From: a bacterium
GTDB taxonomy: Bacteria; Patescibacteriota; Saccharimonadia; CAILAD01; BJGX01
Length of the DNA stretch: 64,000 nucleotides
Direction of reading: 5' to 3'
Assembly (NCBI GenBank): GCA_029778565.1
Contig: JAKOQC010000249.1
Span: forward strand, 45,611 to 109,610
In this document: piece by piece, positions 31,722 through 39,300 of the stretch
Position numbering within the stretch: position 1 is the stretch's first letter
Layout of the letters: every line of letters begins with the position of its first letter
Program-made: the position numbers and the translations under genes
Notes under the pieces: generated by a model
Database searches by the model: none
What the model saw: only the letters and a program-made list of their open reading frames with translations
Told to the model about the DNA's origin: nothing

Positions 31722-32908
31722 AAAGATTGTTGATTGTATCTGATCTGTTTGCACCCTCTATAGGTGGTACCGAGACGGTAACCGATGCCATGGCAACTAA
31801 TTTGCCCAAAGTAGGCTATCAGACTACCGTAGTAGCTCCAGCTGTTGCCCATAAAACAACACCCTATACGGAAAAATCTCAACATGGGTATTCAATTGAG
31901 CGTCTGCGCTCGTTCTCACCACACCTACAAAAGAACTTACGCTTTGGTTTTAGACCGTACAAACAACTTGTTCAATATCTTGATCAGGTTGGTCAACCAG
32001 ACATAATTCATGCCAACAATCTCTTTCCATTAAGCCGCGCGGCGATAAAATATGCGCGTCGTCATAACATTCCATTGGTAATTGGCAGTCATTTAATGCC
32101 AGAAAGTATTACATTTGGTTTAAGTTGGTTTAAGACCCTTCAGCGCGGTTTAAATCGCTTTGGCTGGCGTTATATAGCCAGAGTATATAACAAGGCCGAC
32201 ATTGTTATGAGCCCTACCAATACTGGTATTCGTTATCTTAAGCGTAATGGCTTGCGAGTACCAACCCGAGCAATCAGTAATGGTATAGATTTGCTCACCA
32301 ACAAACCTATTCACACAGATAAGACAATCTTGCGCAAAAAACTTGGTATATCTGGTGATTTGGTGTTGATGTATGCAGGACGACTAGGAGTAGAGAAGAG
32401 AATTGATGTAATAATTACGGCCTTTGCTAAAGAATATGCCACCTTTAATGCCAAATTAATACTGTTGGGTGATGGCAATGCGCGTAAACAATTACGTCGC
32501 CAAGTAAAAAATCTTGGTATCGAGAAAAATGTTATCTTTACTGGTTATGTTACCGACCACGAACGCAAGCGAGAATATTTAGCCGCAAGTGATGGGTTTG
32601 TAATAGCGAGCCCCGTAGAGCTGCAAAGTTTGGTAACTATGGAGGCCATGGCAGTAGGCTTACCAGTGTTGGCCGCAAGAGCAGGAGCGCTACCAGAACT
32701 TTGTCAAAATGAAGTAAATGGCTTTACCTTTGCAGATGGTAATACCAATCAGCTGGCCGATAGAATGTTTAAGCTCTTAAGTAGTGAAAAACTTCGTCAG
32801 AAGTTTTCGAAAGCGAGCCTAGAAATTATATCGCAACATGATATTACTGATACCTGGAAAAAGTATGACGAGATGTATGCAGAGGTATTAGAGAAGTATA
32901 AAAAATAG
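31718..32908 (+). CDS. GT4 glycosyltransferase (diacylglycerol glucosyltransferase-like)
   Basis: H.MPE, ISNGID, GRL..EK, ELQSLVTMEAMA.GLP. Confidence 0.88.
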   Translation: MKRLLIVSDLFAPSIGGTETVTDAMATNLPKVGYQTTVVAPAVAHKTTPYTEKSQHGYSIERLRSFSPHLQKNLRFGFRPYKQLVQYLDQVGQPDIIHANNLFPLSRAAIKYARRHNIPLVIGSHLMPESITFGLSWFKTLQRGLNRFGWRYIARVYNKADIVMSPTNTGIRYLKRNGLRVPTRAISNGIDLLTNKPIHTDKTILRKKLGISGDLVLMYAGRLGVEKRIDVIITAFAKEYATFNAKLILLGDGNARKQLRRQVKNLGIEKNVIFTGYVTDHERKREYLAASDGFVIASPVELQSLVTMEAMAVGLPVLAARAGALPELCQNEVNGFTFADGNTNQLADRMFKLLSSEKLRQKFSKASLEIISQHDITDTWKKYDEMYAEVLEKYKK

Positions 32909-32950
32909 CCTCAAGATATATATTTGAGGCTAAGTGCAGTTCTTATGTGC

Positions 32951-33241
32951 TCAGCGCCCGCAGGTGCAATTCTCGCAACGAAACTCACAGGTAATGACAG
33001 TAGTGACTGCCAGTGTGACAGGCACCTCTCTAGTAGGCGTAACAAATTGAATTGACTTGAGCTTTTCTCTAAATTCTTTCTTGGCAATTGCTTCGGCAAC
33101 GGTATCTTCATCGAGAAGCTCATCGATTTCATCTAAGAGAGCATCAGTATCACTCAGATCACGTTTTGTGACTTCGGGTATGTCTTCGACTTCTTCTACT
33201 TTGTCTTGCTTCTGACTGCTCTTGGTATTTTGTTGCTGCAA
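32951..33241 (-). CDS. Pup-like protein with Cys-rich C-terminus
   Basis: AAGGAG RBS plus TTG start; TDALLDEIDELLDE matches the Pup helix; ends CEFRCENCTCGR. Confidence 0.75.
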   Translation of the reverse strand: MQQQNTKSSQKQDKVEEVEDIPEVTKRDLSDTDALLDEIDELLDEDTVAEAIAKKEFREKLKSIQFVTPTREVPVTLAVTTVITCEFRCENCTCGR

Positions 33242-33351
33242 GGTACACTCCTTGTCTATCGGAGAAATATATTTATACCAAAAAATTATTTACAGCACAA
33301 GCATAAGCATTCTTGACATTTTACCCTATAACAGGTAAAATCTCTTCTTAT

Positions 33352-33751
33352 GGGGCTGTATTAGCTTTGACATATGGAACTTTGAAAAATATTCGCAAGC
33401 CGGGCCGGAATGCACGTTAGCCGTTCCAAAACACTTTAAGTGCCAATACACTTATTAGCAAGGTAAAGGCTGCTTTTGCAGCTCCTAGCCTTGCGCCAGC
33501 ATTTGCCTAATACGCTATGCCGCTTACTACCCAGACACCAGATAGGGTAACAAGCGTCGATTATCTGGATGCGGTCTTACCACCTCTCTGGGCGAGATCT
33601 AAGTAAAAATAAAGAGAGCAAGCAACTTGAGCGCTCTTGTCGGTTTTTTACACTCTTGGGGCTTGTAAAATCCCTTTAGAATCGACTATGCTTGAAGACG
33701 ATATTTTTTCAAACCGTATGGACGCGGGGGCAGAACCCGCCAGCTCCACCA
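33352..33751 (+). ncRNA. ssrA: tmRNA; tag ANTLISKVKAAFAAPSLAPAFA* (33442-33510)
   Basis: 5' GGGGCTG, 3' CAGCTCCACCA (G3-U70 pair), TTAAGT-GCC resume context, Ala-rich tag; TTGACA/TAAAAT promoter; smpB nearby. Confidence 0.95.
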
Positions 33752-33758
33752 AAAATGC

Positions 33759-33992
33759 CTAACCTTTGTTGGGCTTTTTTGATACTATTCGTTTCTTTTT
33801 GAACGTTATTACTCCTACGGCAAGCATAACTATACCAACCGGAAAGGTAACTATGCCAAGCATAGAAATGACCAGTAGGGCTGGGTTGTTGGTGGCAAAA
33901 TAACCAGTCAGACATAGGGGCAGTACAAGTACCAAAACTGTACCCAGTATTACCATGGTAGTGCTACTCATCTTTGATATTAGTTTACTCAT
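33759..33992 (-). CDS. small two-TM membrane protein
   Basis: MSKLISKMSSTTMVILG...; two hydrophobic helices, basic tail; abuts the stop of the upstream gene. Confidence 0.6.
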   Translation of the reverse strand: MSKLISKMSSTTMVILGTVLVLVLPLCLTGYFATNNPALLVISMLGIVTFPVGIVMLAVGVITFKKKRIVSKKPNKG

Positions 33993-33993
33993 G

Positions 33994-36900
33994 TTATGTG
34001 TGGTGGTTTTTCTTATCTGTAACGTAGAGGATATAAGCCAAAAGAGAGGCAAGAAGCAATATGCCAATAATGGATGACCACCAGATGAAGATATAAGTTC
34101 GATTAGGATTGTTATTGCGTGTCCTGCCAGTGTTATCTGGGTTGTTATTATTGCTATCGACTATTGTAACAGTGCCTTCAATAGTGCCAGCTGGATGCAA
34201 TACATATCCATTCGTGTTATCTGTTACTGTTTTGGTAGTCGGGCTTACTGGGCTTGGTGTAGGAGGAATTGGCGTATCTTGGAATGTCCAGTATGTGTTG
34301 CCACCACTGTTTATACTGTCGTAAGCAATCATTACAGACGCATTAATATTATTGCTATCACTTACATCTAGATACTGCAAAGTACGGCTGCCTTGCGCAT
34401 CTATTTGCCAAGGAGTACCCGGAGAAGAAGATACGAGTGTGAGTAGTTCTGTAGCGGAGCCGCCTTTTAGGATGAGATCTCCCAGTATGGTCTCGGTACC
34501 ACCAGCAGGGAAGGTGAGAGTATCGGCCGAGGCTACAATTTTGGTTAGGTTATTAAAGGTAGTGCCCATAATAATCTGGTTGCTGCCATCGAGGATTACT
34601 GTTCCGCCATTAGCATTAAAGGTAGAGCCAGTATTGATAGTAAAGTTACCGCCTACAGTCATGTTGGCACTCGTTGCAGTAAAAGTACCATTATTAATAA
34701 CACTAAAGTTACTATTTATATCTAGCGTGTTATATGTGCCAAGGTTAAGATCGGTGCCATCGATAACAAGATTATTAGCGTTTAGGCCTGTAAAACCATT
34801 GAGAGAATTAGAAGAATCAATCTGTAGTATCCCCGATAAATCGTTAAGCGTTCCTGTACCAGAGAAGGTACCAAAAACATAGAGAGAATCTGTATTGCCC
34901 ATGACTATTACTGGATTGTTACCTAGTGGAAAAATACAGTCTGAGCCGACCGAAAAGTAACCCGCCGATTTATTGAACGTTACTAAATTAATGACCGCAT
35001 TGCCACAGAATGCATTCTGATCTTTAGCACCATAAAAAGTAATAGTACCACCGTTAGCATCAAAGGTAGCACCATTATAATTGACAGTAAAATCGCCACC
35101 TATCGACATTACCCCGGCTGGTGCAGTAAAGCTAGAAAAGCTACCCTGAGAAAAATTTGTAAAAATATCAACCGAAGAGAAGTTACTAAAGTCCACGCTA
35201 ACATTAGCTGCAATAAATACACTCCCGCCAACCAATAAGCTATCAAAGCCGGTTAAAGCGTTGGCAGAGCCAATAGTAAGCAGAGAAGCAGAACTAAGAA
35301 AACTTAGTGTACCAGTACCATTGAAGTTACCATTGAGAATAATATCACCAGAATTTGTAAATGTAGGATTATTACCCAACTCAAAACTACAATCAGAATT
35401 GAAAGTTTTTGTGCCAGTATTGGTAAACCTAACCTGATTAAATGTTGCCCCGCCACAGATTATTGTAGCTGTACCATCACTAAACTCAGTGGTGCCCCCA
35501 TTGGCATTAAAAGTAGCGGCCGGGTTGATTGTTAATGCTTTCTGAAAATACATTGTGCCCGTAGGTGCAATGAAAGTGCCAGAATTTATTGTAACCGTAG
35601 AAGGAAAGTTAACACCAGTCACCGGCACAGTAACACTACCTCCTGTCTGGGTGTATGTTCCAGTTAGACTAAACGTTAAGAAACTACTAAAGTCGAGTGT
35701 CGCGTTAACCTCTGCAAATGAACCCGCTGACAGGCCCGAAAACCCAGACAACGATCCGGCACTATTGATTGTCAGGAGGTTTCCGGTAGCTGCCGAGGCT
35801 ATGGTGAGTGTGCCGCTACCAGAGAGTGTACCGTTTAGGATGAAATCTGTGGTCGTACCACTGCCAATAGTTGGGTTATTGCCAAGTGGCAAGCTACAAT
35901 CGCTACCAATAGTTTTTACACCAGCTGTATTAGTAAATGTCACCAAATTAAACACAGCACTATTACATGCAATAGATGCCGTAGTTGTACCGTTAAAATT
36001 TACTGTTCCACCATTTGCTGTAAAGCTACCTGCCGTAATACTGAATGCACCACCTATAGACATCGTTCCACCTGGGGCCGTAAACGATCCCGAACTCATG
36101 CTAAATGCTGTACTAATGGTAAAGGGAGTGTAGCTCCCAGCATTAAAACTACCTCCGGCAATTGTAAGATTCGCTACAGAGAGCCCCGTAAACCCGGATA
36201 GACTAGAGCCGCTATTGAGGGTAAGGGTGCCGGCAGACTGTGTTAGGGTGCCCGTCCCAGACAGCGTGCCGTTTAGCACAACCCCTTGTGCAATAGTCGG
36301 ATTGTTACCAAGCGGTAATGTACAAGTACTATTGACTGTCTTAGCTGCAGTGTTATTGAAAGTTACCAGATTAAACGTTACACTTCCACAACTAAGAGTT
36401 GACGTTGAGCCGGTAATGTTAACTGTGCCACCATTCGCATTGAAGGTAAGCCCAGCTGTGAAGTTCAGACCTGAAGCACTAAGGGTTCCGGACGGAGCTG
36501 TGAATACAGATGTTGCACCTAACGAAAAGCTTCCAGTCACAGCAAAAGTGGTATAGCTGCCAGCATTTAAAGTACCGTTGATTGTTACATTACTTCCTGA
36601 GTTTATACCCGAGAATCCGGAAAGAGTACCCGTTGTGCCCAATATGAATGTTCCTGTTGTAATAGAGAGTGTGCCGCTGCCAGAAAGTGTACCATTTACA
36701 GTAATGGCATTGGTAATAGCGGGGCTGCTCCCTACCGGAATAGTGCACCCAGAACTAATTGTTTTTAGGCCCGTATTGGTAAAGGTTGCCGTATTGAGTG
36801 AAATACCATTACAAGCTATTGTTGCGGCACCACCTGAGAAGTTGACCGTACCGCTGTTGTGGTTAAAGGTCGGAGTGCCCGTTACTGTAACAGCGCCACT

Positions 36901-37320
36901 AATAGATGTTGTGCCAGAACTCGCAGTGAATGTCCCACCAGAGAGCGTAAAGGCCGCCATCGTGAATGACTGATTGGATGCAGTAAAACTCCCAGTAGCC
37001 TGCGAAAATGTGGTTGTAGTTGCGAAGGTGCGAGCTAAGGTGATTGTGCCAGTATACCCAGCAGCAATGGTTAATGTGGCCACACTTGCTGGCGCACCGG
37101 CATCTATCGTCGAATTCTTGGTCGACGTTGCATTAAAGGTAACCGTATCGCCAGCTATCGGACAGGTATCGGTAGTCCAGTTTGCACAGGTACTCCAGTT
37201 ATTATCAGCCCCACCACCATCCCAGGTGAGAGAAGCGGCGTGAGCGTGCAGGGGGTTAGCAAACAGAGATAAGAGGCTCGTAAACACTAAAAGAACCACT
37301 ACAGAGTAAGTAAGTAGCAA
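33994..37320 (-). CDS. large Thr/Gly/Ser-rich surface protein (beta-solenoid repeats, C-terminal TM anchor)
   Basis: Signal peptide ...AHA/A, WDGGG..NNWS..NW start, five ~140-150-aa repeats each with a Cys pair, Pro linker, TM. Confidence 0.85.
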   Translation of the reverse strand: MLLTYSVVVLLVFTSLLSLFANPLHAHAASLTWDGGGADNNWSTCANWTTDTCPIAGDTVTFNATSTKNSTIDAGAPASVATLTIAAGYTGTITLARTFATTTTFSQATGSFTASNQSFTMAAFTLSGGTFTASSGTTSISGAVTVTGTPTFNHNSGTVNFSGGAATIACNGISLNTATFTNTGLKTISSGCTIPVGSSPAITNAITVNGTLSGSGTLSITTGTFILGTTGTLSGFSGINSGSNVTINGTLNAGSYTTFAVTGSFSLGATSVFTAPSGTLSASGLNFTAGLTFNANGGTVNITGSTSTLSCGSVTFNLVTFNNTAAKTVNSTCTLPLGNNPTIAQGVVLNGTLSGTGTLTQSAGTLTLNSGSSLSGFTGLSVANLTIAGGSFNAGSYTPFTISTAFSMSSGSFTAPGGTMSIGGAFSITAGSFTANGGTVNFNGTTTASIACNSAVFNLVTFTNTAGVKTIGSDCSLPLGNNPTIGSGTTTDFILNGTLSGSGTLTIASAATGNLLTINSAGSLSGFSGLSAGSFAEVNATLDFSSFLTFSLTGTYTQTGGSVTVPVTGVNFPSTVTINSGTFIAPTGTMYFQKALTINPAATFNANGGTTEFSDGTATIICGGATFNQVRFTNTGTKTFNSDCSFELGNNPTFTNSGDIILNGNFNGTGTLSFLSSASLLTIGSANALTGFDSLLVGGSVFIAANVSVDFSNFSSVDIFTNFSQGSFSSFTAPAGVMSIGGDFTVNYNGATFDANGGTITFYGAKDQNAFCGNAVINLVTFNKSAGYFSVGSDCIFPLGNNPVIVMGNTDSLYVFGTFSGTGTLNDLSGILQIDSSNSLNGFTGLNANNLVIDGTDLNLGTYNTLDINSNFSVINNGTFTATSANMTVGGNFTINTGSTFNANGGTVILDGSNQIIMGTTFNNLTKIVASADTLTFPAGGTETILGDLILKGGSATELLTLVSSSPGTPWQIDAQGSRTLQYLDVSDSNNINASVMIAYDSINSGGNTYWTFQDTPIPPTPSPVSPTTKTVTDNTNGYVLHPAGTIEGTVTIVDSNNNNPDNTGRTRNNNPNRTYIFIWWSSIIGILLLASLLAYILYVTDKKNHHT

Positions 37321-38850: not shown

Positions 38851-39300
38851 TTAACGTTTAGACTGAATATCGCGGCTAGCATCGCGTAGCATATCACGCT
38901 TTTTTATTGTCTGACGTTTGTCATAGGCCTTTTTACCACGCCCAAGCCCTATTTCTACTTTAATAAGGTTGCGCTCTAGACCCATTGCTAGAGGTAAAAC
39001 AGTCATGCCGGCTGACTGCACGGCTTCTCGAAGCTCAACAAGCTCTTTCTTTTGCAGTAATAGCTTGCGATTACGGGTAGGATCGTAATCTTTGGTGTGC
39101 GAAGCATGTTTGTAGGGGGTGATAGTAGCATTGGTGAGAAATGCTTCATTACCACTAAAGTGCACAAAGCTACCTTTAAGGCTAATTGCACCAGATCTGG
39201 CACTCTTGGTTTCTTGGCCACTCAAAACAATACCAGCTAGATACGTTTTACTGATATCATAGTCAAATTTGGCGCGTTTGTTCTTGGCTAAGATTTTCAT
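38851..39300 (-). CDS. smpB: SsrA-binding protein
   Basis: NKRA.FDY, AGIVL.G.E.KS, R.RKLLL, GKK.YDKR. Confidence 0.96.
   Translation of the reverse strand: MKILAKNKRAKFDYDISKTYLAGIVLSGQETKSARSGAISLKGSFVHFSGNEAFLTNATITPYKHASHTKDYDPTRNRKLLLQKKELVELREAVQSAGMTVLPLAMGLERNLIKVEIGLGRGKKAYDKRQTIKKRDMLRDASRDIQSKR

Follow-up and report, generated by a model that had tools for sequence, protein, structure and literature searches.

What use could a member of the Saccharimonadia have for a protein that resembles Pup and yet seems unable to be conjugated? The question is raised by a gene of 96 codons on the minus strand (32951..33241) of the window, by which we mean the whole stretch of 64,000 nucleotides analysed here. 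An earlier note on this DNA had seen in it a capped Pup-like protein, its conjugatable end replaced by a cysteine-rich tail, and had suggested that it jams or hijacks the Pup-proteasome system of an actinobacterial host.

The open reading frame is a real gene under purifying selection. It starts with TTG (read as Met), and its translation contains RDLSDTDALLDEIDELLDE and CEFRCENCTCGR, matching the earlier quotation. Purifying selection follows from codon comparisons in which dN stays well below dS, with a dN/dS of about 0.2-0.3: dS is 0.22 and dN 0.06 between G000, the assembly holding the window, and its congener G001; dS is 0.90 and dN 0.18 against the metagenome locus L101; and dN is 0.22 at saturated dS between G000 and a second congener, G002. 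The good ribosome-binding site previously reported is AAGGAG (33248..33253, minus strand), 6 nt before the start codon, and neither site nor start varies in the four aligned genus-level loci (G000, G001, G002 and L101). This selection and eight close homologues also bear out the conservation of the frame, on which the earlier reading had been made to depend. Equally invariant in the four loci is GGTATAAA (33272..33279, minus strand), a candidate extended -10 promoter element that a consensus promoter scan did not call. On the 3' side, a terminator-like hairpin with a U run behind it is oriented for the gene (32900..32931, minus strand; 9-bp stem, -12 kcal/mol, z -3.4); hairpin and T run are kept in all four loci, and the consensus scan did not list the hairpin (loop of 9).

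The close orthologue in the metagenome locus (L101:4850-5330) has a TAG stop at codon 4 in an otherwise intact frame, which is either an assembly error or decay. Identity between G000 and G001 reaches 95-99% over the tail-coding half and the tmRNA region (window 32901-33100 and 33201-33700), against about 80% in the neighbouring glycosyltransferase gene and 83% over the Pup helix, and dS is 0.04 in the tail and 0.37-0.78 in the N-terminal half; recent exchange or a constraint at the RNA level is possible. Contigs assembled from RNA runs cover the tmRNA in four of four runs and the ORF in none, such contigs being unable to show absence.

Profile comparisons show that residues ~15-46 are homologous to Pup, beyond chance yet below the family cut-offs. 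The search with Pup profiles gave a divided answer to the likeness claimed earlier: the protein does match Pfam Pup (PF05639, 19.7 bits, E 0.0017), but this score lies below the cut-off of 27, as do the 13.4 bits of TIGR03687 below its cut-off of 41.45. Pup is the top Pfam match for all eight close homologues, and the ORF is the best Pup match of the whole G000 assembly. A Pup HMM built in this work places the ORF first when the assembly's 20,813 reading frames are scored, and for each of three shuffle types none of 5,000 shuffles reaches its score; this HMM is partly circular, its Pups having been retrieved with the family profile, which is not the case for the Pfam result. Local profile-profile alignment gives a probability of 97.9% over residues 15-46 only, where the alignment ends, and together with the shuffles upholds the Pup likeness of the N-terminal half. 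The four best PDB matches of the family profile are Pup chains (7px9, 3m91, 9cku and 3m9d).

Individual columns were counted in 23 capped proteins and 28 true Pups (the near-identical P0003, P0004 and P0027-P0032 were left out; close kin remain). D33, L35, L36, D37, I39 and L43 are kept in 21-23 of the capped proteins and are common to true Pups, whereas the Asn of the Pup helix 2 region, which all 28 true Pups have, occurs in a single capped protein. None of the 23 ends in GG[EQ]; the C-terminus here is CTCGR, and the conjugation tail is lost just as had been described. Homology ends where the Mpa-binding helix of Pup ends, and the conserved share is only the C-terminal two thirds of that helix: the equivalent of Asn50 is lost and P22 is predicted to break the remaining part. 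Pup has been defined by a C-terminal G[EQ] and adjacency to a pafA/dop homologue (PMC2588565, in part), and the capped protein, though derived from Pup, falls outside membership by profile cut-offs, by its C-terminus and by its neighbours. Compared with actinobacterial Pup (PF05639, TIGR03687; PDB 3M91, 7PX9, 7OXY), it is alike in leader length and in the DxLLDEIDxxL helix; it lacks GG[EQ] and the second helix, NAE[ED]FV-x2-Y, which serves in PafA/Dop binding, and has a 52-residue extension with a second helix of its own and four Cys; and no pafA, dop, arc or prc genes were found in its assembly. UBact is likewise a small acidic Pup-like protein, reported from outside the Actinobacteria, candidate phyla included, but it ends in a conjugatable G[EQ] and lies beside ligase and proteasome genes, an end and neighbours that the capped protein does not have.

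The protein can be divided into four parts. Residues 1-27 (33161..33241, minus strand) form a leader predicted, at low confidence, to be unstructured: the model has a pLDDT of about 50 there and no secondary structure over residues 1-29. In place and length this leader corresponds to the pore-threading N-terminus of Pup, the core Asp being preceded by 29-37 residues in most members of the family. Residues 28-46 (33104..33160, minus strand) are the Pup-homologous acidic helix DLSDTDALLDEIDELLDED with a net charge of -10 (predicted helix 30-44), in which D33-D44 correspond to Pup D37-E48 by PDB chain alignment. A family-specific second helix follows in residues 47-66 (33044..33103, minus strand; predicted helix 48-63); it ends F-x-E-K-L-x-S-I-x-F, stands where helix 2 of Pup would be, and has K[LI]x[ST] in 19 of 23 capped proteins. 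Residues 67-96 (32954..33043, minus strand) comprise a Thr/Val-rich segment and a C-x3-C-x2-C-x-C tail. Its four Cys are invariant in the eight close homologues and CxxC occurs in 20 of 23 capped proteins, so the Cys tail noted at the outset is indeed conserved; in codon comparisons its conservation equals that of the Pup helix, and it is predicted to bind metal. No domain match was found for the tail. The AlphaFold model is of low confidence overall (mean pLDDT 62, pTM 0.25), with the block of helices 30-44 and 48-63 at about 66-81 and an unreliable tail, and the best ESM Atlas scores, 0.83 and 0.80, are to unnamed clusters and below the meaningful range.

These features define a small, undescribed Pup-like family whose members, to judge from their C-termini, are non-conjugatable. 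Close homologues number eight proteins out of 42 candidates; 11 cluster representatives were matched among 1.84 billion, and 18 matches were obtained among 8,000 scored sequences. Leader and Pup helix are common to all members, while the tails differ in type (C-x3-C-x2-C-x-C, C...CxxC or a short GCxxC), so that a constant head is joined to at least four different tails. The family is found in Saccharimonadia, phages and unplaced contigs; distant homologues include P0009, P0012-P0015, P0018, P0019, P0021, P0025 and P0026, the P0011-type loci L099 and L100 are short and unplaced, and G580 (a weak match in a 633-aa frame), G390 and G279 were not counted as members. Capped genes occur in six of 61 relatives, among them all three genomes of the genus, and a scan of 35 of the 64 parts of a genome collection returned at least one capped gene and at least 14 true Pups. 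In a phylum sample searched with the family profile three of 401 genomes were positive, all of the same class and none outside it, and at the Pfam cut-off none of 201 genomes was; in these samples Pup-type genes are confined to Saccharimonadia, and the saccharibacterial origin assumed from the start is supported. Longer fused forms were absent from the 7,995 candidates scored, which is weak evidence, and neither PHROGs (0 of 6 Pup-like proteins) nor PADLOC (0 of 5 proteins) gave a match. A tree of 51 N-terminal cores (50 columns, one duplicated-helix Pup left out) is mostly unresolved and supports neither a single nor a multiple origin. Public runs in which the stretch occurs come from metagenomes of sludge, wastewater and digesters.

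Pup-type genes are also present in three viral records: one complete phage record of 86 kb, which has a WhiB gene and joins a Pup head to a different tail (L010), a record carrying a true Pup (L011) and a phage fragment with a member of the capped family (L012). No ligase gene was found in the three, two of which are fragments. Viral scans with three other alignments gave nothing new, one of them returning the same three contigs, and 50,697 records of cultured phages yielded no match in a weak search in which a true Pup query also matched none.

The bacterial carriers likewise lack the partners of Pup. The earlier note had found no pafA, dop, arc or prcAB in the window, and this extends to the whole assembly: PF03136 (PafA/Dop) and PF00227 (proteasome) have no match in the whole assemblies of six carriers (G000 and five others), PF03136 has none in the 52 genomes of the window's order in the class sample, ARC is missing from the three genomes of the genus, and neither ARC nor DUF1360 was found in G000, G001, G002 or G049, a genome of the same order. 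A PafA-like match on the home contig (E 3e-4 with a Saccharimonadia PafA-like profile) is spurious and belongs to a protein of tyrosine integrase type, as labelled by eye. Since the G000 assembly is 93% complete and exceeds those of its congeners by about 1.3 Mb, absence is better judged from G001 (3 contigs, 97%). With 633 contigs, G000 totals 2.25 Mb, where the congeners have 0.8-0.9 Mb; 405 of its contigs are shorter than 2 kb, all at 30-45% GC, and the extra DNA probably comes from elsewhere, though not from a high-GC host.

Elsewhere in the class, parts of the Pup system do occur. A true Pup above the cut-off is present in 14 of 401 class genomes, in every case ending in GG[EQ] and, at the loci read, lying among housekeeping genes. 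A PafA/Dop-like gene is present in 41 of the 401; seven of the 14 true-Pup carriers have one and seven do not, and proteasome subunits were found in none of the 14. Full ARC was found in one (G113) of 16 class genomes checked. Examples of such loci are L049 and L093 (both G113), L095 (G198) and L098 (G386), the last with a PafA/Dop-like gene next to an 85-aa true Pup whose acidic helix is duplicated (L098:6262-6519). Like the capped gene, these modules of Pup and a single PafA/Dop-like gene are stand-alone pieces of the Pup system without a proteasome in the same class; unlike it, they encode conjugatable Pups, and the order of the window is without the enzyme (0 of 52). The presence of true Pup, PafA/Dop-like and ARC-like genes elsewhere in Saccharimonadia makes the story of origin stronger, and also opens an explanation within the cell.

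The reading that we favour, with a probability of roughly 0.4, is that the protein may be a non-conjugatable decoy of the Mpa/ARC ATPase of an actinobacterial host, delivered by the epibiont. Residues 21-51 of Pup form an antiparallel helix on the coiled coil of Mpa with the free N-terminus passing through the pore, and Mpa engages Pup-DHFR, a linear fusion (PMC8755798 and PMC5515868, both in part), which makes a Pup head with C-terminal cargo a plausible Mpa substrate without any ligase. The engineered fusion and the capped protein both place the Pup head N-terminal to the cargo, and engagement of the fusion needs no isopeptide bond (PMC8755798, in part); the capped protein differs in being a natural gene product with a truncated Pup helix and a short Cys-rich tail as cargo. 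PafA and Dop, for their part, bind Pup's two helices and its C-terminal residue (PMC8599861, in part). The earlier note had the Pup helix dock on both kinds of partner, and what is retained here suits Mpa/ARC more than PafA/Dop: helix 1 and the leader, the latter predicted to be unstructured, are kept, while helix 2, the invariant Asn and GG[EQ] are lost. With no ARC found in the epibiont's own genome, a host target would be the simplest inference. In favour, too, no ATPase other than an ARC-like one was found beside a family member (G013 and G023). The protein would be exported into the host through a type IV secretion system (T4SS) or by another route, and its head would there occupy Mpa/ARC; a metal-clamped Cys tail might resist unfolding and prolong the occupancy, so that Pup-dependent unfolding and degradation would slow down, with less stress-response proteolysis in the host to the benefit of the epibiont. 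Affinity may be below that of Pup, because the helix is conserved in part, P22 would break it and the Asn50 equivalent is lost.

As to delivery, a T4SS cluster with two pilins, PrgI, a VirB4-like ATPase and an 820-aa amidase lies on contig C136 of the assembly (L104 = G000:C136:28000-47999; PF18895, PF12666 and PF19044/PF03135), and PF19044 is present in five of five carriers. No export signal was recognised in the capped protein, and its gene is far from this cluster. The T4SS of Saccharibacteria is essential, its role being stated as unknown, and cultured Saccharibacteria grow on Actinobacteria (PMC11665869, in part). An actinobacterial host is an extrapolation in the present case, because G000 falls outside the order that holds the largest families of the class. 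The cultured strains presumably belong to another order than G000. Against the decoy also speak the patchiness of the gene (six of 61 relatives) and the codon-4 stop of one close copy (L101), and the conserved second helix is not explained by a pure decoy.

More broadly, there is somewhat less than an even chance that Saccharimonadia epibionts and actinophages have made effectors of a host tag, with capped Pups that would jam or redirect the Mpa/ARC-proteasome alongside orphan Pups and ligase-like enzymes. If this is true, it would give a Patescibacteria effector its first named molecular target and pupylation its first natural antagonist or hijacker. For the question of how Saccharibacteria manipulate their hosts, a 96-aa candidate whose target can be predicted is open to direct tests on pure proteins and laboratory strains of Actinobacteria, and it would furnish work on Mpa/ARC with a natural probe or a scaffold for inhibitors. 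A literature search whose scope excluded subscription papers and supplements, the tables of which could list such genes, found no account of Pup mimics or of Pup-system genes in Saccharibacteria; the consulted part of the main text of PMC12592800 does not mention pup, proteasome or ubiquitin, nor that of PMC12288473 phage or orphan.

The main rival to the decoy, unlikely in our estimate but to be taken seriously, is that the protein acts in its own cell, as a relic or repurposed part of an ARC-like module that has lost the ATPase in this genus: today it would be small, acidic and either metal-binding or redox-active, or would bind another AAA+ enzyme of the epibiont. In G013 and G023 a capped relative lies about 1.4 kb behind an ARC-like ATPase, which is without the QYL end, in a cluster with DUF1360; this would point to use within the cell there and counts against the decoy. 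Other members of the class own pairs of Pup and PafA/Dop-like genes, in G036 a short peptide with CGCWG at its end comes after a third ARC-like gene, the tail is conserved as strongly as the Pup helix, and the missing export signal fits as well. However, G000, G001, G002 and G049 have neither ARC nor DUF1360, and still the Mpa-facing residues are under purifying selection, as judged at a saturated synonymous distance (G000 vs G002); the same design is, moreover, carried by ligase-free phages. The G023 and G013 clusters (L043:7171-11789 and L044:282-4916) consist of the ARC-like ATPase, DUF1360, a type III hammerhead ribozyme (RF00008; L043:9495-9550 and L044:2525-2579), the capped gene and two phage-like genes. 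The G036 peptide (60 aa, L105:3128-3310) lies directly behind its ATPase and before a gene that by eye resembles the DUF1360 gene, and does not score as Pup.

A hijacking adaptor, which we regard as quite unlikely, would share the docking of the head on host Mpa/ARC with the decoy and use the second helix and Cys tail to feed a host protein to unfolding and the proteasome without pupylation. In favour are the constancy of the head across no fewer than four kinds of tail, a second helix that is conserved and hydrophobic, and the engagement of linear Pup fusions by Mpa (PMC8755798, in part). On the other hand, the tail has no domain match and no target was identified, cargo held non-covalently may be shed while the adaptor itself is threaded, and the lack of a recognisable export signal weighs here as it does for the decoy. 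We hold it to be distinctly improbable that the protein inhibits host PafA/Dop, with helix 1 in the Pup groove, the new helix in place of helix 2 and the Cys tail blocking the active site. The conserved segment does equal helix 1 of the Dop/PafA-bound form (7oxy/7oy3 matches, E 0.055; PMC8599861, in part), and a second helix is predicted; yet the parts that contact Dop extensively, helix 2 and the C-terminal residue (same source, in part), are lost and do not align, and a long leader would be superfluous.

There is very little to be expected from a RiPP-like precursor with a Pup-like leader and a Cys-rich core, an alternative raised earlier that the conserved N-terminal part and hypervariable Cys-rich C-termini would suit, since no maturase, protease or transporter adjoins the gene in the loci read and a genome-wide maturase search, for the radical SAM class, found a gene in none of the four other carriers and, in G000, four matches on small unlinked contigs. 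A match to an NCBIfam radical SAM model (E 0.004, 15.8 bits against a cut-off of 500) is not meaningful.

Just as improbable is a partner of trans-translation, that is, an adaptor for tmRNA-tagged proteins co-regulated with tmRNA through a common promoter region. The tmRNA gene ssrA (33352..33751, plus strand; Rfam RF00023, 95.5 bits, E 1e-37; missed by ARAGORN) stands head to head with the capped gene, with 110 nt between it and the start codon, and smpB (38851..39300, minus strand; PF01668, E 2e-49) is 5.6 kb away; the layout given in the earlier note is thereby confirmed. This head-to-head arrangement is found in all four genus-level loci (G000, G001, G002 and L101), and the tag of the tmRNA looks unusually long. 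Elsewhere tmRNA is not beside the gene in six of nine other loci scanned (L099, L100, L102, L013, L043 and L044, some of them short), the capped gene is missing from 55 of 61 relatives, and each strand has promoter-like elements of its own, that of ssrA being of sigma-70 type (TTGACA-17-TAAAAT, 33313..33341, plus strand; 11 of 12 consensus matches). The adjacency is confined to this genus and probably incidental, and a functional tie to tmRNA and smpB is not supported. By eye, the tag encoded in the tmRNA (window 33442-33510) seems to run to about 22 residues, the last five being APAFA. The genes on the 3' side of the tmRNA (window 33759-37320) differ among G000, G001 and G002 and form a variable island, beyond which lies the gene of a 1,108-aa repeat-rich protein, probably of the cell surface.
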